Below are positions 1 to 55,653 of a stretch of DNA of 64,000 bases, one piece after another. Source of the stretch: Escherichia coli (GTDB lineage Bacteria; Pseudomonadota; Gammaproteobacteria; Enterobacterales; Enterobacteriaceae). Each line of letters begins with the position of its first letter. Positions within the stretch are counted from its first letter, which is position 1. Location: NCBI RefSeq assembly GCF_024700885.2, contig NZ_CP117016.1; one strand, written 5' to 3'. The notes beneath the pieces are model-generated. The model was not told the DNA's origin. It did not search any database and saw only the letters and a list, made by a program, of their open reading frames with translations. The translations under genes and the position numbers were made by a program.

Positions 1-18
1 CCGGAAAAATCAACCTTG

Positions 19-840
19 TTACCTAGTTACCTTTTTTAACTGCCGCTCAGCCCATGCTTCTTCAATATCAAACCGGGTCACCAGCGCATCATAGAATTTC
101 TTAACTGTTTTTTCCCATGACGCGCGTGTTATCTGGTTTGTCACCTCGCATATAGCATTAAATGCCTCCGTTGATGGTAGCCTTTCATAGCCACGACCAC
201 CACAACGCTGGCAGTCTCTGATAACAGGCATACCACGTTTTACCGACTCTTCACGATGAATGGCGACACCACGCCCACGGCAATCCTTACAGGCGGTGGA
301 AACCTCACCCTTCCCGCCACACTCCGGACAGGCAACTTTTACCACCTCCCTGACTTTTTTCCATTCTTCCCAGTAAGACGGATACACACCTTTCGTACAC
401 TTTGCCCATACCGGCGGCTTACCATCCGGATACTGGACCTTGTTTGTAAAAACTACGCTTTCAATAAATTTTTCCCCATAGCAACAAGGGCACAGCTTTT
501 TACTCGCTGCGCTGCGGGCATAATCCTCAAAAGCGCACGAAGCCATAATGCGCATCACTACCGGTTTTATTTCTGCCGGAAGTTTTCTCAACGCCGCCAC
601 ACGATCGCACCGACTGAGTGCATAATCTGCCAGTAATTCTGTTGCCCGCGCCCTGTCATTCATACTGATGCCCATCTTCCCCAGGAACGCAGAAAACCCC
701 ATCTCAGCCCGATTCTGTGTCATGCCCTGCGCGGCCATCACATCAGTGATACTCAGCGCATCTTTTGACGTTGAGGCCGATGCATCGGTCAGGCAAGGGG
801 ATTTTGGGGAGTAGTATTTCGGTAAATCTTCCAGTTTCAT
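19..840 (-). CDS. phage late-gene antitermination protein Q-like (QuuQ-type, zinc-finger)
   Basis: 273-aa ORF with repeated CxxCxGxG zinc-finger motifs (CPECGGKG, CKDCRGRG, CQRCGGRG); lies downstream of rusA and the DUF968 gene, the position of Q in lambdoid nin/late-control regions. Family call from memory. Confidence 0.55.
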   Translation of the reverse strand: MKLEDLPKYYSPKSPCLTDASASTSKDALSITDVMAAQGMTQNRAEMGFSAFLGKMGISMNDRARATELLADYALSRCDRVAALRKLPAEIKPVVMRIMASCAFEDYARSAASKKLCPCCYGEKFIESVVFTNKVQYPDGKPPVWAKCTKGVYPSYWEEWKKVREVVKVACPECGGKGEVSTACKDCRGRGVAIHREESVKRGMPVIRDCQRCGGRGYERLPSTEAFNAICEVTNQITRASWEKTVKKFYDALVTRFDIEEAWAERQLKKVTR

Positions 841-1211
841 TTTTTGACCTGCTCTTCATGCATTATGGGGTAAATCTTCACCCCCAGACGTCCACCAGAT
901 ACTGGCTGACCACGAACGATATTGATTTCATCAAACTGCTCATCGTCCATTAACACTCCCGCATGCGTCAGCGCATCCAGCGGTGCTTTCAGGATATTGT
1001 CCAGGTCGCGACGACGCTTATCCGGTGGCTCTGCAATCACCTTTATCGCCAGCCTTCCGGACAGGCTTAATTTCAGCCGCTGCTGGCGAACAATAAGCGC
1101 CACAGCACGGCGATAACGCTTTCCCTCCTCCGAGATAAAATATGTGCTGCCACGGCGTCGCCAGTAAGTGTTCACCGTCGGCGGGTAAGGTAAAACCAAA
1201 TCTATGAGCAT
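837..1211 (-). CDS. rusA: RusA-family Holliday junction resolvase
   Basis: 124-aa ORF with the RusA signature DKRRRDLDN and overall RusA-like pattern; start overlaps the upstream gene stop. Confidence 0.8.
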   Translation of the reverse strand: MLIDLVLPYPPTVNTYWRRRGSTYFISEEGKRYRRAVALIVRQQRLKLSLSGRLAIKVIAEPPDKRRRDLDNILKAPLDALTHAGVLMDDEQFDEINIVRGQPVSGGRLGVKIYPIMHEEQVKK

Positions 1212-1223
1212 CAGTCACCTCTT

Positions 1224-2273
1224 TTACCCAAGCACGCCAGTTGCAAAGGCGTGATCAAGAAAACGAAAAATTAAATCAACCTGAGAACCATGCTTTTCTT
1301 CGAACGCCAGCGGATCCGCATGAAGCTCGTTGTGATGCTCCCGACACAGCGGTAGCGTGAAAATATCGTGAGATTTTGTCCCCATTCCGCCCTGACCATG
1401 ACCAATCAGGTGATGGGGATCGTCGGCTGGCTTACCACAACACGCACACGGCTGTGTCTTCACCCAGCGTGTGTATTTCTCGTTAACCCAGCGGCGACGT
1501 TTAGGTCGTTTCATGAAAGATTCCGGAGACTCAGGATCAACGGCAATGCTGACCACCGTCTTTTCCTGTGGTGGGTTCTGTTGCTGGTGGGCGTGAGGCA
1601 GCGGCGCAAGATTTTTTGTGCGCTGTTTCAGTATGCTGGTGGCGGTCTGCTCTCCCGGTACGATGTCGCTTTCACGGTACATTGAGCGGATTTTTTCCGC
1701 ACGCAACCCCAGCGAACGACGTAATACCGCTTCCGGTAGCGCGTCCGCCACCTGATTGCGGACCGCCCACCAGGATAATTCAGCCAGAGATAATTCACGC
1801 TCCTGCGTACCGCTTATTGCGTGACCGATGACGTCAATCATCCATGCTGACAGGTTTTGATGAGCAACTTGCTCGAGTGATTCGGATGTCTGGTCACGCA
1901 GCTGGTTGTCGCAGTGCCAGCACAACACCATTGCGCCGGTACCATAACGGTGAATGACGGTTTCGCTGTGATGATAATCGCCGTGTGGCCACTGGCAGGA
2001 TTTAATATGGCGCAACAGCCAGTCAGACAATGCACCAGCACCACCAGCAGCACGAATCACCCGTGCGTTACTGAAAAACGGCAGCAATGTTTTGTCTTCC
2101 ACCAGCGGCTGGCGAGCGGCAGGAACGACCCCGGACGGCAGATTACGCATGCTTTTCGGTTCCGGCTCCACCAGTAACCGGGTATTGTGGAATACCGGCA
2201 TGGATTCACGGCCCGGCTTAACGATCACCAGCCCGAGTTCCGGTACCAGAACAGGTCGAAGTAATACCCGCAC
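1224..2273 (-). CDS. DUF968 (YdfU-like) prophage protein with C-terminal HNH-like Cys/His motif
   Basis: 349-aa ORF; C-terminus CACCGKPADDPHHLIGHGQGG...CREHHNELH resembles the HNH-like motif of the DUF968 family found next to Q in Qin-type prophages. Confidence 0.6.
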   Translation of the reverse strand: MRVLLRPVLVPELGLVIVKPGRESMPVFHNTRLLVEPEPKSMRNLPSGVVPAARQPLVEDKTLLPFFSNARVIRAAGGAGALSDWLLRHIKSCQWPHGDYHHSETVIHRYGTGAMVLCWHCDNQLRDQTSESLEQVAHQNLSAWMIDVIGHAISGTQERELSLAELSWWAVRNQVADALPEAVLRRSLGLRAEKIRSMYRESDIVPGEQTATSILKQRTKNLAPLPHAHQQQNPPQEKTVVSIAVDPESPESFMKRPKRRRWVNEKYTRWVKTQPCACCGKPADDPHHLIGHGQGGMGTKSHDIFTLPLCREHHNELHADPLAFEEKHGSQVDLIFRFLDHAFATGVLG

Positions 2274-2274
2274 G

Positions 2275-2664
2275 TTACCTCCAGATGCGTTGCTGGAATG
2301 TGCGGGATGGACGCGGTGGGCGTTCGGAGTAAGGCAATCTGACTGAGATTATCCAGTGACGGTAGTCGAGGCTAAGGGCTTTTTTAACCTCGTATCCGCG
2401 CCTGCGGTAACACTGAATTATCCATTCAGCCTGCTCTTCAGTGCATGGTGGATGCTGGAACCAGTCCGATTTGAATGCATGAAAACGCCGTCCGCACCTG
2501 CTGGCAAAGACGGCAGAATCATCAGAATTGTGTAATTTGGTATCGTGCGCCATCGGTTGTCTCTGCTGGCGCAGCAGGTGCCAGTTGTTCAGGCTGGCGT
2601 ATAAAGTATAAATAAACTGGTTCCAGTGTAAAGCCCCTACATTAATGGAATAAAAGTCAAACAA
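2275..2664 (-). CDS. hypothetical prophage protein (position of rem in Qin-like prophages); true start may be an internal Met
   Basis: 129-aa ORF directly upstream of and abutting the DUF968 gene; no recognisable motif. Confidence 0.3.
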   Translation of the reverse strand: MFDFYSINVGALHWNQFIYTLYASLNNWHLLRQQRQPMAHDTKLHNSDDSAVFASRCGRRFHAFKSDWFQHPPCTEEQAEWIIQCYRRRGYEVKKALSLDYRHWIISVRLPYSERPPRPSRTFQQRIWR

Positions 2665-2919
2665 CAGATTGTTGGGATAAACACAACGCTTATTATTAAA
2701 AGCGATTAGATAAATTAAATTTTAATGTTATGCAATTTTACCAGATCATCATAACATCTCGTTTGAAACCACCGAAACAACAACCATATCAATATTGATT
2801 ATGTTAAAGTGAGTAAATATGGAAAACAACAAATCTGCACATTACGCTCCTTTTTTATCTGTGATACTTTTTGTTTTATGCTGTGTGTGGGCATTATTTT
2901 TATAAAAATATTCACAGAT

Positions 2920-2943
2920 AAAATAAACCCGCCGAAGCGGGTT
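2920..2943 (-). terminator. rho-independent terminator at the 3' end of the hok transcript
   Basis: On the minus strand, hairpin AACCCGCTTCGGCGGGTT followed by a T-tract (plus strand aaaataaacccgccgaagcgggtt), about 70 nt downstream of the hok stop. Confidence 0.55.
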
Positions 2944-3011
2944 AAGTGCGGGTGCATTGAGGATGCCTGACACATCCGAGGTGGCGAGGGATTTCTCCCT
3001 CGCCGGGTCTC

Positions 3012-3167
3012 TTACTCCTCAGGTTCGTAAACTGTGAAGACAGCGACCTCCGTCTGGCCGGTTCGGATTCGTACCTCGCAGAGGTCTTTCCTCGTTACCA
3101 GTGCCGTCACTATGACGGTTAAACAGATGACGATCAGGGCGATTAACATCGCCTTTTGCTGCTTCAT
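3012..3167 (-). CDS. hok: Hok/Gef-family type I toxin (51 aa membrane peptide)
   Basis: Minus-strand ORF below the 60-aa cutoff of the ORF track; translation MKQQKAMLIALIVICLTVIVTALVTRKDLCEVRIRTGQTEVAVFTVYEPEE is essentially the HokD/Hok sequence as I recall it. Structured GC-rich 3' region and upstream leader present. Confidence 0.85.
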   Translation of the reverse strand: MKQQKAMLIALIVICLTVIVTALVTRKDLCEVRIRTGQTEVAVFTVYEPEE

Positions 3168-3424
3168 AGCCTGCTTCTCCTTGACCTTTCGGTCCGTAAG
3201 AGGCTAATCTCTATGTGTCGCATAGATATGGCCTCAGATTAATGTTAAACGTCTTGCAGGACGCGTAATGTTACCTGGGGCTTTTCTCTATCTGCCGTTG
3301 GTGTTCATGCCCGAGGCAGATAGCCTCAAGCACCCGCAGTCATTCTACTTAACTAAGATTTCCCCGCAAACCGTTTTTGTCCAGCACAATAAATATCCAA
3401 CTAAACCAATGGAGTTCGCTGTAT

Positions 3425-3604
3425 TTACCGCCAGTATTCAATGCACATGACCGCCATGAACACCCCTAAAAAAAGGGCATTTATATATCCAAATATTAAT
3501 ATCAAAACATCAACTTTTTCCATATACCTTGCTGTGAAGATGATGGGCATACATGATACGAACAACCAGAACGCAACAAACAAAAACTGCAATGCGTTTT
3601 TCAT
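3425..3604 (-). CDS. hypothetical small hydrophobic (membrane) protein
   Basis: 59-aa ORF from internal Met (MKNALQFLFVAFWLFVSCMPIIF...) in an AT-rich stretch; two predicted hydrophobic segments; no family assignment. Confidence 0.3.
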   Translation of the reverse strand: MKNALQFLFVAFWLFVSCMPIIFTARYMEKVDVLILIFGYINALFLGVFMAVMCIEYWR

Positions 3605-4144
3605 TATTCCTCCTACAATCAATGTGCAATTACATTTAAACACACCTCAATTTGGCCGGACATATAAATATCTAAACTAGAAAAAATCACTTACATAGCG
3701 TTACAAACTCTTTAGTCTAAAGGTTCATCGTAAAACATTCCCCATACTTATCAGTCCGTTCCGCGCCAGGTAGCTTATTGCCTTATCTGGCAACCTATAA
3801 TCAGGTTTCCGCTTTTTCAGTTGGCTGGTCGTTTAACCGACATAGTTAACCCATTAATCTAGTTGCCGGATGTTGGTGGATTTTCGCGTTTTAGTTGTTC
3901 ATAAAAGTGCACAGCTTTAACCAGTTCTTCTGATGTAACCAGGGCTGGTGAGGCAGTGAATAAGGCCTGAATTTGATAGTTCGGCCTGTCGTTACAATCC
4001 TCTTTTTTCGGTACATATTTCCAGTCAACAGACCACTACTTCTCCTGAAAGTCCGTAACGCCTTTTTTCACGTAGCGATATCGCCATGCCACTGGTTTTG
4101 CTTGCCCCGCCGTTTCATACCCTTCCTGATAATTAATCTCGCTC

Positions 4145-4319
4145 ATTCATCGCCCCACTCATCACAATATGCTTCGACCGGATTTTTTCCTGCTTCATAA
4201 TCATCACGCCATGCTTCAGCATCAGCAGCACTGCCACCACGTAACTCTGCATAGTCCATTAACAGTTCATGCCATTTTTCAAAACTGACGTTGTATTTAG
4301 TTGAACCAAAATCAGCCAT
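4145..4319 (-). CDS. hypothetical small acidic protein (58 aa)
   Basis: ORF MADFGSTKYNVSFEKWHELLMDYAELRGGSAADAEAWRDDYEAGKNPVEAYCDEWGDE; start overlaps the stop of the upstream 60-aa ORF; below the ORF-track cutoff. Confidence 0.3.
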
Positions 4320-4494
4320 TTTGCTCTTCCTCTTCGTCTTTTATTTCGTGATATGAGTAATTGCAGTAGTTAAAGAAAATACCTTTTGCTTCGTCATGTA
4401 TTTCATCAGGCGTCGCATCAGCATCCACTTCGAATTCATCCTCGAAATCTCCACCAGCCATTCCCGTTTCAATAATTATTTTGAACTTTCGCAT
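4312..4494 (-). CDS. hypothetical small highly acidic protein (60 aa)
   Basis: ORF rich in D/E (GDFEDEFEVDADATPDEIHDE...DEEEEQ); translationally coupled to the next small ORF. Confidence 0.3.
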   Translation of the reverse strand: MRKFKIIIETGMAGGDFEDEFEVDADATPDEIHDEAKGIFFNYCNYSYHEIKDEEEEQNG

Positions 4495-5001
4495 TTCACT
4501 ACCGCCCTTTCGGGTGGCCTCCTGCTGTTCTGAGGGTGCAGAAATCCCTCCGGTTAAGGATTAAATTTTTAACAGTGCTAAATTTAATTATTCAGTTTTG
4601 GATTTTGTCACCCTGCGTATCCGCGCTTTCCCGTTACGCTCAATCTGAATTAGCTTTTCTATATTTTTTCGCCTTTCCCGTTCCTCCTGGCGCAAGAGCC
4701 TTACATCATCTGCCAGTCTGGTTTCTCTTTTCGCCACAGAGAGCATCCAGTCAAATGGCTCCACAACTGCACCGCAGATTTTACAGCGGACCTGACGCTC
4801 TTTTTCGTCAACCCGGACAGAAGCGTGATGGCAATATGGTCTTTCCGATGGCTCATAAAGAAAATTAACCTGATTACGAGGGTCATCCTCTTTTATCGGA
4901 AATAAAACGATATTGCTTAACTAATCCTCTGGTTTTATTTCCATGCTCCTCTCCTTTGATGCGAATGCCAGCGGCAATTGAAGCCTGATAGCTAATTTCA
5001 C

Positions 5002-5424
5002 TCACAGTACCGCCTCCTGAAAATTACCCTGATAGAAAGCCAGTACACGCTGCATAGCTTCGCTCTTCCGGCACTCGCGACAGATTATATTCAGGCGCCT
5101 GTCGTAGCGGCGTATTTCTCCGTCTGGTAATGACCAGATTAGGTCCGGATCAACCGCAGATGGTTTCTTCGGCTTTGCCCTTGAGAGCTTTTTACGGGCA
5201 TTTTGCCAGTCCTTACGCGCCTGTTCAGACGGGAATAACCCGTAACCAGAGTTGTATACATCGCCACTGGCAACCAGCTCTCTGGCCAGAACGCTCATCA
5301 GATATCTTGTTGCCCCAGTTTTAGTTTCCAGTCGTCGTAACGTCTCGCGCCCACTCTGGCGTACGAGTTCAACAACCTGCCCTTTAATTTTTTCCCGCTC
5401 TTCTTGTGTAAAAACTTTTGCCAC
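5002..5424 (-). CDS. hypothetical prophage protein (140 aa)
   Basis: ORF immediately downstream of the replication gene in the same operon orientation; basic, with a CRECRK motif; no confident family. Confidence 0.4.
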   Translation of the reverse strand: MAKVFTQEEREKIKGQVVELVRQSGRETLRRLETKTGATRYLMSVLARELVASGDVYNSGYGLFPSEQARKDWQNARKKLSRAKPKKPSAVDPDLIWSLPDGEIRRYDRRLNIICRECRKSEAMQRVLAFYQGNFQEAVL

Positions 5425-5464
5425 AAGCCCTCCTGAAAATTACCTCATGACCAGAAATTAACAC

Positions 5465-6541
5465 TTACCCCCTGAAGCCCGGCGGAATTTCGTTATCCGG
5501 TTCAGAAATATGATTCACACAACGCTGGTTGTTCGTGCCGCTTACCGGGAGCAACCAGGGGTTCTCAAAATTCCGGTCCGGTCCAAAAAACGTCGTCGCT
5601 CGCTGAACAAATTCCGTTCCCGTTTTCCCGGTAGCCGCCAAGTATCTTGCGTAACGCCTCACGCCATCCAGCATGGCCTCTGGTGGCACCCCCTCGCGTA
5701 ATCTGGCCTTCCAGGCACTGAAAGCGGATTTCTTCGGGTTTGCTCCGGCACGCAACGGGTACTCCCGCCAGACCTGTTCGAACACATCCGGATAATCCAC
5801 TCGTCCCACAGACTGCCCGGTGTTTTCCGGGACTACCCGATCGGCTTCCCGCTGAATGGCGGAATCGGCTTCGGGCTGCTGCAGTTGGTGTGATTGCTCC
5901 GGCCTTGCGGTCATCACCTGCTGCACAGCGCCCGAATCGGCTTTCAGCGCATACGCTGAATCGGCTTCCGGTGTCGTGCCTGCTGGCTGACCAAGATTGA
6001 CGGTCTGAACATCCCCTGCCTGGTTCGTGGCGTTTTTTACGCCATGGACCATAGTGTTTTGATCTTCTTGATCTGTATCTTTATCTGTATCTTTATCTGT
6101 CGTGACTCGTCGTGACATGTGCGTGACATTTCGTGACGCGCCGTGACAATCGCCATTTTGTTCCCGCTTTCTTTCCCTCTCTCGCTGCGCCCTCTTGCGC
6201 TCTGCAGGAGATTTTGCGGTTTGCGAAATATTGCCGTTGTCCTCTTTAAGCACCTGGCGTTTTTCCCATCCAGTGATTAAATCACCATCAAGTACCCGCC
6301 CCTGCATCGTCTGCAAAATTGAATCAATTACCTCTTCTGTCACGTCGAGCGCACTTGCCAAATCTTCTGTCGTGACATCAATGTGACCTCGCGTGACATT
6401 TCGTGACGCGCTCACCAGGAGGTGGATATACACTGCCATCACTGTTGCAATTGGCTGCCCTGACACCCTGGCAATTGTTCGCCACTTAGGGTCATTTGGC
6501 ATGTCATGCCATAATCTGAGCCAGGCGTTAGCCATACTCAC
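5465..6541 (-). CDS. putative phage replication initiation protein (lambda O-like / YdaU DUF1376-like)
   Basis: 358-aa ORF downstream of the cro-like and YdaT-like genes; embeds two arrays of CGTGAC repeats at about 10-bp spacing, as lambda ori lies within O; contains a DKDTDKDTD linker repeat. Confidence 0.6.
   Translation of the reverse strand: MSMANAWLRLWHDMPNDPKWRTIARVSGQPIATVMAVYIHLLVSASRNVTRGHIDVTTEDLASALDVTEEVIDSILQTMQGRVLDGDLITGWEKRQVLKEDNGNISQTAKSPAERKRAQRERERKREQNGDCHGASRNVTHMSRRVTTDKDTDKDTDQEDQNTMVHGVKNATNQAGDVQTVNLGQPAGTTPEADSAYALKADSGAVQQVMTARPEQSHQLQQPEADSAIQREADRVVPENTGQSVGRVDYPDVFEQVWREYPLRAGANPKKSAFSAWKARLREGVPPEAMLDGVRRYARYLAATGKTGTEFVQRATTFFGPDRNFENPWLLPVSGTNNQRCVNHISEPDNEIPPGFRG
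6101..6147. repeat. iteron-like array: 5 x CGTGAC at 10-11 bp spacing (candidate phage ori)
   Basis: CGTGAC at 6101, 6111, 6122, 6132, 6142; preceded by tandem 12-bp repeat atctgtatcttt at 6071-6100. Confidence 0.55.
6371..6407. repeat. second iteron-like array: 4 x (C/T)GTGAC at 10-11 bp spacing
   Basis: Repeats at 6371, 6382, 6392, 6402; shares an identical 20-bp block gcgtgacatttcgtgacgcg with the first array (6121-6140 vs 6391-6410). Confidence 0.55.
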
Positions 6542-6606
6542 CTCTTTTGATACCGAATCTTTTTACTCACAAATTGCCGGAAGTGATCCGGTATGAATAT
6601 TGCGAG

Positions 6607-7032
6607 TCAATGCACAGCCACAATATTTCCTGCAGGGCCACCACGATTCATCTGGTTGAAACCAGCGATCGCCACTGCGACAAAATCATCAGCGTCTCTC
6701 ACCAGTCGTTCCCGCGTCTCCACTAGTTCCCGAAAATAGGCTGAGCTATGACTGCGCATTCGGGCCACCAGCAGAGGTGGCATTGCTTTTTCGATAGCTG
6801 GTAACAACGCCTGAATTTTTTTAACCGCATCAGGGGTGTCTTTCTCCACCCAGCGGAAAATTTTCTGAGTATTGCGAGCCAGGGCTTCCGGATGGCTGTC
6901 GTCATACAGTTCCGGGAACGTCATTCCCAGCTCGAAATACGCTTTGGTAATTTTCACAGCCGGTACTTTTTCGCCGTCCGGATGCGCCCAGGCATTCATC
7001 GCCATGCGGATGTGTTCATGCTTGATTTTCAT
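6607..7032 (-). CDS. YdaT-like prophage protein
   Basis: 141-aa ORF MKIKHEHIRMAMNAWAHPDGEKVP... matching my recollection of Rac YdaT; follows the cro-like gene with ATGA overlap. Confidence 0.6.
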   Translation of the reverse strand: MKIKHEHIRMAMNAWAHPDGEKVPAVKITKAYFELGMTFPELYDDSHPEALARNTQKIFRWVEKDTPDAVKKIQALLPAIEKAMPPLLVARMRSHSSAYFRELVETRERLVRDADDFVAVAIAGFNQMNRGGPAGNIVAVH

Positions 7033-7283
7033 GAATCAACTCCCATCAGCTTTTTCGTAGTAGTTTTATTCCTGCCAATAGTTAAAATTGCATCGGCAGA
7101 AAATAATCCGTTTGATGCAAGAGCGATTTTTTCAGCGTAATTTGTTTCGCCGGTATATTCTGTGCGAGGCAATTTTCCGTTATCCATCCATTTATAGATT
7201 GCTCTTTGGCTGACACCACAAACGTCGGCCACAACAGCAACGCGAACAGTTTTGATTACATCTTCAAGTGTTTTCTGGTTCAT
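7029..7283 (-). CDS. Cro-like / YdaS-like HTH regulator
   Basis: 84 aa from internal Met (MNQKTLEDVIK...); HTH-like segment VCGVSQRAIYKWM; divergent from the DicA-like repressor gene. Start chosen to leave a 79-bp operator region. Confidence 0.55.
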   Translation of the reverse strand: MNQKTLEDVIKTVRVAVVADVCGVSQRAIYKWMDNGKLPRTEYTGETNYAEKIALASNGLFSADAILTIGRNKTTTKKLMGVDS

Positions 7284-7362
7284 ATCACCCTCACAATGTG
7301 AACTTTGAGTACATGCTATAACAGAACTGACAGTACATTCAAGAGCGAATATCATTGAACTT

Positions 7363-7782
7363 ATGGTTCATGAAGATAAAGCGCGTAAAGAGTTCGCCAG
7401 TAGGCTTGCGCTAGCCTGTGAAAACGCTGGTTATGAACAACATGGAAGGCAGGCAGAAATTGCCCGTCGAATGAAATTAACACCAAAAGCGGTTAGCAAA
7501 TGGTTTAATGGCGAAACAATTCCTCGCCGGGAGAAATTAAGGGAATTAGCAACACTAATAGGAACAACACCAACCTATCTTTTGGGAGAGGATACAGAAG
7601 AAAGTGGACAGGTACGTTTCTATCAGGAGTTAAATCCAAGACAAAAAATCATCATTGACCTTCTGGACGAGCTCCCTGACAGTGAGACAGATGAACTTTT
7701 AAAAACTCTTGAAGAGAAAAAACAGAAGTACAATGCAATTTACGAAGAGTTAGCACGAAAGAAAAAACAAAAAGCCTCTTAA
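7363..7782 (+). CDS. DicA/RacR-like XRE-family HTH repressor (immunity repressor)
   Basis: 139-aa ORF with N-terminal HTH and acidic C-terminal helix; heads the ydfABC-dicF-dicB module as dicA does in Qin. Confidence 0.6.
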   Translation: MVHEDKARKEFASRLALACENAGYEQHGRQAEIARRMKLTPKAVSKWFNGETIPRREKLRELATLIGTTPTYLLGEDTEESGQVRFYQELNPRQKIIIDLLDELPDSETDELLKTLEEKKQKYNAIYEELARKKKQKAS

Positions 7783-8079
7783 ACCAGCATAAATCCGGTA
7801 GCGCCTTCCTCCGGGTTTGTGCTTCACTTTATCCCATCTCATTTTTTTACACACAAAATGTACTAAAAGTACTTTACAACAATGAACGCAAAGTACATTA
7901 TATACCTACCACCCACCCCGCCCCACAGAATGCAGGGCAATACTTCGAGTTACCAGGCAGTGGTCAGGGGTTAAGTAGCCAGCCCGAGGCGTAAGAACAT
8001 GACGGCAGGGTTCAACTTTAATAACTATGCAGCAGGTTTTTGTTCCGCTACCCCGGCGTTAAGGGGAAATGAGGTCAGC

Positions 8080-8235
8080 ATGGATACTATCGATCTTGGC
8101 AACAACGAATCTCTGGTGTACGGCGTGTTTCCCAACCAGGACGGCACCTTCACCGCAATGACGTATACCAAAAGCAAAACGTTTAAAACCGAATCTGGAG
8201 CGCGTCGCTGGCTGGAAAGAAATTCAGGTGGGTGA
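8080..8235 (+). CDS. ydfA: YdfA-like small prophage protein
   Basis: 51-aa ORF MDTIDLGNNESLVYGVFPNQDGTF... with good SD (aaggggaaatgagg); matches my recollection of Qin YdfA. Confidence 0.55.
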   Translation: MDTIDLGNNESLVYGVFPNQDGTFTAMTYTKSKTFKTESGARRWLERNSGG

Positions 8236-8236
8236 T

Positions 8237-8368
8237 ATGGATTTCGACACAATCATGGAAAAGGCTTACGAAGAATACTTCGAAGGCCTTGCCGAAGGCG
8301 AAGAAGCTCTCAGCTTCAGCGAATTTAAACAGGCGCTTTCCAGTTCGGCAAAATCTAACGGCTGATAA
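8237..8368 (+). CDS. ydfB: YdfB-like small prophage protein
   Basis: 43-aa ORF MDFDTIMEKAYEEYFEGLAEGEE... immediately after ydfA (1-bp gap). Confidence 0.5.
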
Positions 8369-8394
8369 GCGAAACAGCACCGCGAGGAATCAGC

Positions 8395-8613
8395 GTGCAG
8401 AAACGAGAACCCGTCATCATCGCGCCAGACTATACCGATGATGAACTTTATGAGTGGATGCGCCAGAAAATTAATGCAGCGCAGGATCTGAAATGGGCTA
8501 ATGAAGCCAGGGCTAAGCAGGCTGAAAATCTGTCCGCTCTGGAGCAGGATATCACCAATCTGGAAAAAGCAGCGGCATTAAGCATTGCCAGAATGATTAC
8601 ATACCCGCGTTAG
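8395..8613 (+). CDS. ydfC: YdfC-like prophage protein
   Basis: 72-aa ORF MQKREPVIIAPDYTDDELYEWMRQKINAAQDLKWANEARAKQ...; order ydfA-ydfB-ydfC as in the Qin dicB operon. Confidence 0.55.
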   Translation: MQKREPVIIAPDYTDDELYEWMRQKINAAQDLKWANEARAKQAENLSALEQDITNLEKAAALSIARMITYPR

Positions 8614-8954
8614 TAGCTAATCAACAAAGCTAAGGTTAGTAATTAAGGAGTTCTCCACGGGTGAGGTGGAGTGCGTGCGCCGGACACGGGTGAGCATCCG
8701 GCACTGACAGTTTACTGAAAGGATATTTCCCTGAAAAGTCAGACCATAACGCGAAAGCGCACGGCGAGGTAGCTGGTTCATAGATAGCCTGTCGTTAAAT
8801 TTTCGTCGACCGTGCGCTTCCGGTTGTGGCAATCCGCGAAATGGCGCGGCGGTAAGTATGGCGGGGTTATTCCTTCCCCCGTTGAGGACACCGGGTTGTC
8901 AGGTTGACCATACGCTTAAGTGACAACCCCGCTGCAACGCCCTCTGTTATCAAT

Positions 8955-9007
8955 TTTCTGGTGACGTTTGGCGGTATCAGTTTTACTCCGTGACTGCTCT
9001 GCCGCCC
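8955..9007 (+). ncRNA. dicF: DicF small RNA (ftsZ-targeting sRNA processed from the dicB operon transcript)
   Basis: 53-nt stretch tttctggtgacgtttggcggtatcagttttactccgtgactgctctgccgccc followed by TTTTT; matches the DicF sequence as I recall it and sits between ydfC and dicB. Confidence 0.75.
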
Positions 9008-9181
9008 TTTTTAAAGTGAATTTTGTGATGCGGTGAATGCGGCTAAGCGCACGCGGAACAGTTAAAACCAAAAACAGTGTTATGGGTGGATTCTCTGTAT
9101 CCGGCGTTAATTGTTAACTGGTTAACGTCACCTGGAGGCACCAGGCACCGCATCACAAAACTCATTGTTGAGGGCGCGATA

Positions 9182-9370
9182 ATGAAAACGTTATTACCAA
9201 ACGTTAATACGTCTGAAGGTTGTTTTGAAATTGGTGTCACTATCAGTAATCCTGTATTTACTGAAGAGGCCATTAACAAAAGAAAACACGAACGGGAGTT
9301 ATTAAATAAAGTATGCATTGTTTCAATGCTGGCCCGTTTACGTCTGATGCCAAAAGGATGTGCACAATGA
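9182..9370 (+). CDS. dicB: cell-division inhibitor DicB
   Basis: 62-aa product MKTLLPNVNTSEGCFEIGVTISNPVFTEEAINKRKHERELLNKVCIVSMLARLRLMPKGCAQ is near-identical to DicB as I recall it. Confidence 0.85.
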   Translation: MKTLLPNVNTSEGCFEIGVTISNPVFTEEAINKRKHERELLNKVCIVSMLARLRLMPKGCAQ

Positions 9371-9558
9371 ATCCAGTATTTGCACTTATTCTGACGGTTT
9401 TTCTTGTTTCCGGAGAGCCAGTTGATATTGCAGTCAGTGTTCACAGAACAATGCAGGAATGTATGGCAGCAGCAACCGAACAGAAAATTCCAGGCAACTG
9501 TTATCCGGTCGATAAAGTTATTCACCAGGATAATAACGAAATCCCGGCAGGATTTTAA
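9367..9558 (+). CDS. ydfD: YdfD-like small protein with N-terminal hydrophobic segment
   Basis: 63-aa ORF MNPVFALILTVFLVSGEPVDIAV...; ATGA overlap with dicB stop. Confidence 0.65.
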   Translation: MNPVFALILTVFLVSGEPVDIAVSVHRTMQECMAAATEQKIPGNCYPVDKVIHQDNNEIPAGF

Positions 9559-9651
9559 AACAGCACCGTAATAAATATCCAGTTTCATTCTTATATGTCA
9601 GCAATGGCAGAGATTTGTTCACCCTTAAATCTGTGATGAGGTTTATCAATA

Positions 9652-12093
9652 ATGAGCACTGATAAAGAAGAATTTGCACTATATTGCGAAGCAAAAAATG
9701 ACAAAGTAAGAAAACGCCTAGGAATTAAAGGTGGTTTTTACTGGACTACAGCAAAAAAATTATCTGTTGCAATCTCCCGCTGCATTACCGCAATGGATGA
9801 CAACGATTATGATGAAGACGACTTTAAAAAACCCGTCCGCGTCAATTTGCCCGTTGTTGACGACCTTCCGCCAGAAGGCGTGTTTGATACTGAATTCTGC
9901 AACCGCTATGAAAAAGGCGGGAAAGATGGCATCACAATGACATTTATCGGCCCTTCCCCCTCTGTTCAGGACAAATCAGCCAGCACTGATAATACCAACA
10001 TCAACGGCGAAGACATGACTGAGATTGAGGAGAGCATGCTTCTACCTGTCTCCGGTCAGGAACTGCCCATTCGTTGGCTTGCTCAACACGGCAGCGAAAA
10101 ACCAGTAACGCACGTTTCACGCGACGAACTCCAGGCATTACACATTGCACGGGCTGAAGAACTACCGGCTGTTACTGCCCTGGCTATTTCGCATAAAACC
10201 AGTCTGCTCGACTCGCTGGAGATTCGCGACCTCCACAAACTGGTTCGTGACACTGACAAAGTTTTCCCTAATCCTGGTAATTCAGACCTGGGACTAATAA
10301 CTGCTTTTTTCGAAGCATACCTGGACGCTGACTACACTGATCGGGGTCTGCTGACAAAAGAGTGGATGAAAGGAAATCGTGTTTCACGCATCACCCGCAC
10401 GGCTTCCGGTGCTAATGCTGGCGGTGGGAACAAAACCGATCGCAGTCCGAATTTAGTACACACCCTCGACACACTGGATGTGGAGATTGCAGCAGCCACA
10501 CTTCCGATGGATTTTAATATTTATGAAATTCCGGGCAGCGTTTATCGTCGCGCAAAAGAAGTAGTCCTGAAAAAAGAAAGTCCGTTCAAAGAATGGTCCG
10601 CAGCACTTCGTGCAACCCCGGGTATTCTGGACTATTCCCGCGCCGCTATTTTTGCACTTATCCGAAGCGCACACCCTGAATTTTATCACTACCCGGGACG
10701 CCTTCAGGGGTATATCAACGCCTATTTGACGGAAACTGATCACGAGAACCCCAGCAAGGAAACTCTCACAGCTGCCCGGCATACGCCGGAAAAAGATATC
10801 CTGGAAGAAATTAACCGCGAGGTGGTTACTGAGCGTGAAACAGAAGAAGAAAAACCACAACCATCTGACGCAATGGCAGGTGAACAGGCAACAACTGAAA
10901 CAATGGAACCGGATACAACTGAACATTGCCAGAACGCGCAGTCGCTGGATGCTCAGTCGCAGGTGAGTTCCGCTAACCAAGTAAAAGTCACCGCTGACGA
11001 AGTAAACAAAATTATGCAGGCAGCCAATATCAGCCAGCCTGACGCCGATAAGTTACTTGCTGTATCGCGTGGTGAATTTGTTGAGGGGATTAGCGACCCT
11101 AATGATCCGAAATGGGTCAAGGGGATCCAGACTCGCGATTCTGTGAACCAGAACCAGCATGAATCGGAACGGAACGACCAAAAAGCGGAACAAAACAGCC
11201 CAAATGCGTTACAAAACGAGCCAGAAACGAAACAATCCGAACCAGTAGCGCAACAGGAACCGGAAAAAGTCTGCACCGCCTGCGGTCAGAGCGGTGGCGG
11301 CAACTGCCCTGATTGTGGCGCGGTGATGGGCGACGCAACATACCAGAAAACATTCGATGAAGAGAATCAGGTTGAAGTTCAGGAAAATGATCCGGAGGAA
11401 ATGGAAGGCGCTGAACATCCACACAAGGAGAATGCTGGCAGCGCTCAGGACCACGCCAGCGATAGTAAAACTGGCGAGACGGCAGATCCCTTAATTACGG
11501 TGAATGGTCATCACGAAATCACATCCACCAGCAGGACGTGTGACCATCTAATGATCGACCTTGAAACCATGGGAAAAAATCCTGATGCCCCGATCATCTC
11601 AATAGGTGCAATATTTTTCGATCCGCAAACCGGAGATATGGGACCGGAATTTAGTAAGACTATCGATCTGGAAACTGCTGGCGGAGTCATTGATCGGGAC
11701 ACCATTAAATGGTGGCTTAAGCAATCACGCGAAGCGCAATCTGCCATTATGACCGATGAAATCCCGTTAGATGATGCACTGTTACAATTGCGGGAATTTA
11801 TCGACGAAAACTCCGGTGAATTTTTTGTTCAGGTCTGGGGAAATGGAGCCAACTTCGACAACACGATTTTGCGCCGTTCATACGAACGGCAGGGGATCCC
11901 CTGCCCGTGGCGTTACTACAACGATCGCGATGTACGCACAATCGTTGAGCTGGGGAAAGCCATAGACTTCGATGCCAGAACGGCTATTCCATTCGAAGGT
12001 GAGCGCCATAATGCACTTGATGACGCTCGTTACCAGGCAAAATACGTTTCAGCTATCTGGCAAAAACTGATCCCGAGTCAGGCTGATTTTTAA
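9652..12093 (+). CDS. YdfE-like large prophage protein with C-terminal DEDDh (DnaQ-like) 3'-5' exonuclease domain
   Basis: 813-aa ORF; the C-terminal ~190 aa carry exonuclease motifs (MIDLETMG..., ...[13 protein letters not shown]..., ...HNALDDAR); preceded by an acidic low-complexity linker and a Cys4 zinc ribbon (CTACG...CPDCG); in the ydfE position between ydfD and xis. Confidence 0.6.
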
Positions 12094-13432: not shown

Positions 13433-13522
13433 TGGCGGAGAGAGGGGGATTTGAACCCCCGGTAGAGTTGCCCCTACTCCGGTTTTCGAGACCGGTCCGT
13501 TCAGCCGCTCCGGCATCTCTCC
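13433..13522 (-). tRNA. serU: tRNA-Ser (anticodon CGA)
   Basis: Reverse complement reads GGAGAGATGCCGGAGCGGCTGAACGGACCGGTCTCGAAAACCGG...CTCTCTCCGCCA, a 90-nt class II tRNA with anticodon CGA and encoded CCA. Confidence 0.9.
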
Positions 13523-14513: not shown

Positions 14514-14589
14514 TCCTCTGTAGTTCAGTCGGTAGAACGGCGGACTGTTAATCCGTATGTCACTGGTTCGAGTCCAGTCAGAGGAGCCA
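14514..14589 (+). tRNA. asnT: tRNA-Asn (GUU)
   Basis: 76-nt TCCTCTGTAGTTCAGTCGGTAGAACGGCGGACTGTTAATCCGTATGTCACTGGTTCGAGTCCAGTCAGAGGAGCCA; its 3' end is the HPI attachment site. Confidence 0.95.
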
Positions 14590-51345: not shown

Positions 51346-51421
51346 TGGCTCCTCTGACTGGACTCGAACCAGTGACATACGGATTAACAGTCCGCCGTTC
51401 TACCAACTGAACTACAGAGGA
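51346..51421 (-). tRNA. asnW: tRNA-Asn (GUU), variant copy with one D-loop substitution
   Basis: Reverse complement is identical to the other three Asn tRNAs except AGTTGGTAG instead of AGTCGGTAG in the D-loop. Confidence 0.93.
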
Positions 51422-53169: not shown

Positions 53170-53245
53170 TCCTCTGTAGTTCAGTCGGTAGAACGGCGGA
53201 CTGTTAATCCGTATGTCACTGGTTCGAGTCCAGTCAGAGGAGCCA
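53170..53245 (+). tRNA. asnU: tRNA-Asn (GUU)
   Basis: 76-nt sequence identical to asnT. Confidence 0.95.
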
Positions 53246-55577: not shown

Positions 55578-55653
55578 TCCTCTGTAGTTCAGTCGGTAGA
55601 ACGGCGGACTGTTAATCCGTATGTCACTGGTTCGAGTCCAGTCAGAGGAGCCA
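55578..55653 (+). tRNA. asnV: tRNA-Asn (GUU)
   Basis: 76-nt sequence identical to asnT. Confidence 0.95.

Follow-up and report, generated by a model that had tools for sequence, protein, structure and literature searches.

The hok/sok (parB) system of plasmid R1 is the paradigm of its family: a plasmid-borne locus acting in post-segregational killing, with a Hok toxin of 52 amino acids and a mok reading frame of 70 codons that overlaps hok out of frame. Mutagenesis in R1 has indicated that translation of mok need reach only the Shine-Dalgarno sequence (SD) or start of hok, and that hok is still translated when stops fall at the hok start or beyond it. A relative carried by lambdoid prophages, hokW-sokW of the Stx2 phages 933W and Sp5/VT2-Sakai of Escherichia coli O157:H7, has been established by experiment as a type I toxin-antitoxin (TA) system that aids phage release: HokW, 44% identical to R1 Hok, is toxic and is made upon prophage induction, and its Sok RNA acts as antitoxin, for which RNase III and Hfq are partly needed (PMC8621323). 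Toxicity is likewise on record for HokD of E. coli K-12, whose gene (hokD, or relF) lies in the cryptic prophage Qin.

The locus considered here lies in a window of 64,000 nucleotides of E. coli DNA and is very probably an intact hokD/sok TA locus, set in a lambdoid prophage of the Qin/DicF type with the replication genes on one side of it and the DUF968-RusA-Q module on the other. It is an already known, ordinary copy of hokD that looks complete, and it is not a discovery, since thousands of E. coli genomes carry hokD as a routine annotation. Its worth is as a reference: the complete form, with promoter, the elements tac, ucb, dcb and fbi, mok and Sok, is the common state in E. coli, and the K-12 copy is leaderless. 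Our analysis bears directly on sequence identity and family membership, on where the elements lie and on which alternative folds are predicted; transcription, processing, the action of Sok, toxicity and biological role we infer by analogy with characterised relatives. The toxin gene itself occupies the following positions:

3012 to 3167, minus strand: hok (hokD-type) coding sequence, 51 amino acids, from the open reading frame (ORF) and its translation, Pfam, tblastn and the RefSeq name hokD.

An earlier note on this DNA had described a 51-codon ORF at exactly these positions, and the translation matches the peptide that it quoted residue for residue. Its further claim that the peptide is a canonical Hok/Gef protein holds well, as residues 6-47 cover the full length of the Pfam model HOK_GEF (PF01848; model positions 1-42 of 42, 78.5 bits, E 2.8e-22), and K-12 HokD finds the ORF by tblastn at 98% identity (E 7e-30), with 50 of 51 residues the same and A46V as the sole change. 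In the identical DNA of E. coli MLI114, RefSeq names the ORF hokD (WP_000813256.1). One might still suppose that an ORF so short (51 codons, under the default 60-aa threshold for listing ORFs) had arisen by chance in a structured non-coding region and that its likeness to Hok was spurious, but such an artefact is ruled out by the strength of the full-length Pfam match, the near identity to K-12 HokD, the annotation of hokD in thousands of genomes and an adjacent Rfam match to the leader of 100.8 bits, and its probability is negligible. The Hok models of NCBIfam fell below their curated cut-offs (NF007279, the Hok subfamily, at 45.1 against 73 bits; NF007290, the HokA equivalog, at 38.1 against 89), and the search listed no HokD-specific model. 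As all its Hok matches are sub-threshold, NCBIfam is unusable for the HokD subtype, and the identical protein presumably received its RefSeq name by a rule other than these two models.

Among 61 distinct relatives the hok coding sequence is nearly invariant in nucleotides, synonymous sites included (14 of 156 columns vary; mean minor-allele fraction 0.006), a pattern consistent with a constraint of RNA structure on top of coding. The A46V difference from K-12 (GCU to GUU, 3032-3030) falls in a predicted helix that pairs codons 43-47 with the translation-initiation region of hok, and in that helix (window 3026-3032, minus strand) G-C or G-U pairs are kept in all variants. Next to it is the codon for Tyr47, UAC, whose UACG context does not vary. 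According to a preprint of 2025, hokD mRNA undergoes A-to-I editing at the equivalent of HokB Cys46, and such an edit would turn Tyr into Cys.

The closest experimentally characterised comparison is hokW-sokW, to which the locus shows ~92% nucleotide identity over its whole length in 933W and Sp5. HokW and the window's Hok are both 51 amino acids long and share 47 of 51 residues; four positions differ within the last seven residues (TVYEPEE in the window's peptide against VDYESEK in HokW). The tac, fbi and SD elements are the same, Sok is placed alike and both loci reside in lambdoid prophages, and the leader of hokW-sokW is identical to that of the window over the published knockout and screening primers of Takada et al. 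(PMC8621323). There are also differences: 933W does not have the window's terminator sequence, and its locus sits near the end of the phage, whereas that of the window sits between the replication genes and Q. The resemblance to R1 is one of family and of layout, for the two toxins belong to the same Pfam family and the window's leader fits the Rfam model built for the family, with tac/fbi and ucb/dcb elements, a GAGG SD for mok, 19 mok codons upstream of hok and a Sok of ~65-70 nt on the same logic. Among the differences, the window's Hok has 51 residues, its mok 19 codons, and its setting is a prophage and not a plasmid.

The ends of the hok transcript and its signals were placed as follows:

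2922 to 3335, minus strand: predicted full-length hok mRNA, ~414 nt, from position 1 of the Rfam model, the onset of conservation and the terminator.
3342 to 3370, minus strand: putative weak hok promoter, -35 TTTGCG (3370-3365), 17-nt spacer, -10 TAGAAT (3347-3342), from reading the sequence.
2918 to 2943, minus strand: intrinsic terminator, AACCCGC-UUCG-GCGGGUU followed by a U-run.

The whole element spans ~2922-3370, more than the 2920-3260 first proposed, because the leader reaches 3335 and the -10 hexamer TAGAAT sits at 3342-3347. A scan against Rfam, which the earlier note had suggested as a check, aligned the model RF01794 over all of its 157 positions to 3165-3335 (minus strand) and scored 100.8 bits, where the gathering score is 59. 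Whilst that model is entitled 'sok antitoxin', the match marks the hok leader and not the strand that encodes Sok, since it runs in the sense of the hok mRNA and its last three positions (AUG) are the hok start codon; Sok is the complement of part of this leader. The upstream leader proposed at 3168-3260 is therefore real, but it ends at 3335, ~75 nt further on. From position 1 of the RF01794 model and the onset of conservation at GTTAAGTAGAAT..GGGTGC, the 5' end of the mRNA is predicted at 3335, and a +1 near this position would suit the putative promoter, whose -10 TAGAAT is conserved in alignments with 933W, mEp460 and a Rac-type phage. At the other end, the structured, GC-rich 3' region with a terminator hairpin that had been noted from the letters was readily found again, as a terminator-like hairpin at 2943-2926 (minus strand) with a T-run behind it. 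A generic sigma-70 consensus scan of 2700-3600 called neither the hok nor the Sok promoter, so both were placed by homology; its sole call, at 2825-2798 (minus strand), was set aside as lying downstream of the locus.

The antisense RNA was located with the help of 933W, which annotates mokW, hokW and a 71-nt sokW RNA that could be transferred to the window by alignment:

3217 to 3285, plus strand: predicted Sok antisense RNA, 69 nt, from the 933W sokW misc_RNA transferred by alignment and from its fold.
3181 to 3210, plus strand: predicted Sok promoter, -35 TTGACC (3181-3186), 18-nt spacer, -10 TAATCT (3205-3210), by homology to sokW.

A promoter for Sok had been expected in the leader, and the TTGACC/TAATCT pair ahead of Sok at 3217-3285 supplies one by homology to the characterised sokW. 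The -35 differs between the two loci (TTGACC with an 18-nt spacer here, TTGCCT with 17 nt in hokW-sokW), and the window's -10 is the equivalent of the TAACCT that primers YO-421/422 alter in sokW to give a construct lacking the Sok promoter, a mutant without antitoxin activity (PMC8621323). In its predicted fold (-23.5 kcal/mol) Sok has a largely unstructured 5' tail, where the minimum free energy (MFE) structure shows no more than a hairpin of 3 bp within the initial 11 nt, and a 3' part formed by a long terminator-like stem-loop ending in GGGGCUUUU; the 5' tail is complementary to the region of the mok AUG. At the level of sequence, then, the locus has a predicted cis-encoded Sok with its own candidate promoter and terminator, complementary to the mok initiation region.

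The elements through which the hok mRNA would change its conformation could be assigned from the same sequence and its predicted folds:

3324 to 3335, minus strand: tac element at the 5' end of the mRNA, GGGUGCUUGAGG, pairing with fbi in the full-length MFE structure and with ucb after 3' truncation.
2950 to 2962, minus strand: fbi element, CCUCAAUGCACCC, the complement of tac at the 5' end.
3275 to 3282, minus strand: ucb, or anti-SD box (GCCCCAGG), with GCCCC, the partner of the mok SD in the full-length fold, and of tac once the RNA is truncated.
3200 to 3204, minus strand: dcb box (GCCUC), which, in the conformer truncated at its 3' end, pairs with the region of the mok SD and closes the Sok-target hairpin.
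2983 to 3004, minus strand: stable 3' stem-loop, GGCGAGGGA-GAAA-UCCCUCGCC, from the fold (helix 15).

A 410-nt RNA from the locus folds with an MFE of -169 kcal/mol (z = -7.45 against shuffles), and in the full-length MFE structure nucleotides 1-12 (tac) pair with 2950-2962 (fbi) and the SD of mok pairs with ucb. When the 3' end is truncated in silico to ~2980-2990, tac gives up fbi for ucb, and the mok SD leaves ucb and pairs with dcb in a GAGGC...GCCUC hairpin; the same conformational switch has been described for R1 hok mRNA, in which GAGG is the mok SD and a hairpin equivalent to that at 2983-3004 protects the truncated message (PMC9841398). The stem-loop at 2983-3004 is likely to be the 3' end of the processed, active mRNA. 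Laid over the alignment of 61 distinct relatives, the proposed full-length structure has 96.8% of cells paired, compared with 36-42% in slid controls, and the 12 pairs of the tac/fbi helix (helix 1) reach 99.9% of cells over 61 sequences, with changes only of the G-U type. Compensatory changes occur in two pairs only; in helix 15, 10 sequences have G-C in place of A-U at one pair. Since mean identity among the relatives is ~96% and one of them was the source of the structure, covariation lends weak support, and the alignment speaks for compatibility with the proposed fold and not as strong proof of it.

The leader also holds the mok reading frame and the two SD sequences:

3164 to 3223, minus strand: mok-equivalent leader ORF, 19 codons (MRHIEISLLRTERSRRSRL), from the sequence; the ATG lines up with the start annotated for mokW in 933W.
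3232 to 3235, minus strand: mok SD, GAGG, 8 nt upstream of the mok AUG and sequestered by ucb in the full-length fold.
3177 to 3181, minus strand: hok SD, AGGAG, base-paired in every predicted conformer.

The overlapping mok frame that had been expected in the leader is there, with a GAGG SD, but not as a long overlap, for this mok is a 19-codon upstream ORF: its AUG (3223-3221), at a conserved position, lies 56 nt ahead of the hok AUG, and the TGA that ends it (3166-3164) shares letters with the hok ATG (3167-3165) as AUGA, with no extended overlap. mokW of 933W, by comparison, starts at an offset of 57 nt and runs for 70 codons in frame with hokW. A survey of the offset in 85 related loci, in which the frame varies among L003 to L085, gave the following:

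Offset 57 nt: in-frame extended Hok of 70 aa, ~58 loci.
Offset 56 nt, the window's form: 19-codon ORF, 16 of 85 loci.
Offset 58 nt: 68 aa, 3 loci.
Offset 55 nt: 67 aa, 1 locus.
Offset 63 nt: 15 codons, 4 loci.

Among near-identical hokD/hokW loci, mok thus occurs in all three reading frames, the 67-68-aa products being out of frame. The short form could be read as a frameshift that weakens coupling, and with it the locus as a silent relic, intact in appearance, in which a 19-codon mok and weak promoters uncouple hok so that the native locus never makes Hok, a view already put forward for other hok loci on the chromosome. The contrast with the 67-70 codons of mok in most relatives lends this some colour, as do the frameshifted pseudogene directly upstream in the orientation of hok, a mark of prophage decay, and the chromosomal hokA, hokB and hokC, which, as cited in a recent preprint, were reported unable to mediate post-segregational killing (bioRxiv 10.1101/2025.08.07.668861). 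Yet no cis element is missing and the pairings come out as expected; a mok stop set exactly on the hok AUG is a classic arrangement for coupling, and R1 tolerates stops at or after the hok start; the hok coding sequence is almost invariant among relatives; and the allele is a recurrent one, found in 16 of the 85 sampled loci and, at an identity of at least 99%, in dozens of complete genomes. Since in R1 translation of mok need reach only the hok SD or start, the short allele is probably functional, and a silent relic is unlikely.

K-12 bears on the same question, as its hokD is itself truncated, a precedent for decay in this lineage of loci. Its coding sequence and 3' UTR, fbi and terminator included, are 98% identical to those of the window, and Qin is syntenic with the window's prophage, one flank holding dicB, DicF and ydfA-C and the opposite flank ydfU (DUF968) and Q. 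Homology, however, begins only ~16 nt upstream of the hok ATG, beyond which relE-relB stand in place of the leader, so that K-12 hokD has neither tac, ucb, mok nor Sok, nor a promoter of its own. To judge by the alignment, the K-12 gene is a rearranged, leaderless remnant behind relBE, and the window's copy is the complete, ancestral-type locus. That the window would have no relBE pair upstream, unlike K-12 Qin, had been remarked upon from the letters; a tblastn search of the whole 64 kb for RelB and RelE gave a best E above 4 and no homolog. At the leaderless loci (L002, which is K-12; L053; and three viral contigs whose leader is of the K-12 type), homology is lost at one and the same point, ~16 nt before the hok ATG (…ACAGGAGAAGCAGGCTATG), and the sequence upstream of L053 is unlike K-12 relE, a pattern suggestive of a recombination junction, either recurrent or shared, immediately ahead of the hok SD.

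With the locus taken as intact, the regulatory elements would work together much as in R1. A weak promoter would yield an mRNA of ~414 nt in which the 5' tac pairs with the 3' fbi and ucb holds the mok SD, and because of these two pairings the full-length RNA would be neither translated nor bound by Sok. Slow trimming from the 3' end to the stable hairpin at 2983-3004 would then strip away fbi, upon which the 5' end would pair with ucb and the mok SD enter the Sok-target hairpin. As long as the abundant but unstable 69-nt Sok is present, it would pair with the start region of mok, blocking mok translation and inviting cleavage by RNase III. Were Sok to be lost, the 19 codons of mok would be translated through the hok SD to termination on the UGA over the hok AUG, either opening the site or allowing re-initiation, and the resulting 51-aa Hok would enter the inner membrane and depolarise or kill the cell. 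By analogy, the role of the locus is most likely linked to the prophage: it may assist lysis when the prophage is induced, which has been reported for hokW-sokW, or else serve in prophage retention or in phage exclusion.

Variation within the locus is concentrated in a single short stretch:

~3205 to 3229, minus strand: hypervariable cassette around the mok AUG, alignment columns 107-131, with 18 alleles in 77 loci.

Here the mean minor-allele fraction is 0.225, against 0.006 in the hok coding sequence, and the rest of the locus is almost invariant. The cassette spans both the target of Sok nucleotides 1-13, the 5' recognition tail, and the region from -10 to +1 of Sok; the window and 933W differ at 7 of the 16 positions compared. 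Such a distribution would be understandable if the cassette were under diversifying selection that keeps co-resident lambdoid hok/sok copies orthogonal, each Sok silencing only its own hok, with drift of the mok frame as a by-product, though we regard this as a tentative proposal, more doubtful than not. In all 4 of the contig pairs taken from single genomes the two alleles are unlike, a result with an expectation by chance of ~0.53 and hence uninformative; a literature search on hok/sok cross-talk found a review that has nothing on specificity between hok/sok alleles. If the proposal were true, natural variation would show that the transit of the ribosome, and not the Mok protein, is what matters. 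The occurrence of mok in three frames together with a variable Sok-target cassette could, in any case, serve the study of antisense-RNA specificity and of translational coupling without mutagenesis.

As to the genomic setting, positions 1-11360 of the window are 100% identical to the chromosome of E. coli MLI114, in which the neighbours are an exonuclease, ydfD, dicB, ydfC/B/A, two HTH regulators, YdaT, replication-region genes, hokD itself, a DUF968 protein, RusA and the antiterminator Q. This is a neighbourhood typical of a Qin/DicF-type lambdoid prophage, with such genes on both sides of hok, and it bears out the earlier placement of the toxin gene inside a prophage. The 461-bp locus is matched in 4717 of 5426 complete E. 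coli genomes, and the leader region (3160-3345) is covered to at least 80% in 3554 of the 5426, in up to six places per genome; about 80 phage records carry the locus as well. A DicF small RNA is encoded at 8956-9007 on the plus strand (a full-length Rfam match of 76.7 bits), within a ydfABC-dicB module that is 96.6% identical to that of K-12 Qin. The window further contains five tRNA genes, at 13436-13522 and 51349-51421 on the minus strand and at 14514-14586, 53170-53242 and 55578-55650 on the plus strand. Four of the five share an Rfam score of 72.6 bits, the gene at 51349-51421 has the anticodon GUU (Asn), and these may be repeated genes for tRNA-Asn.
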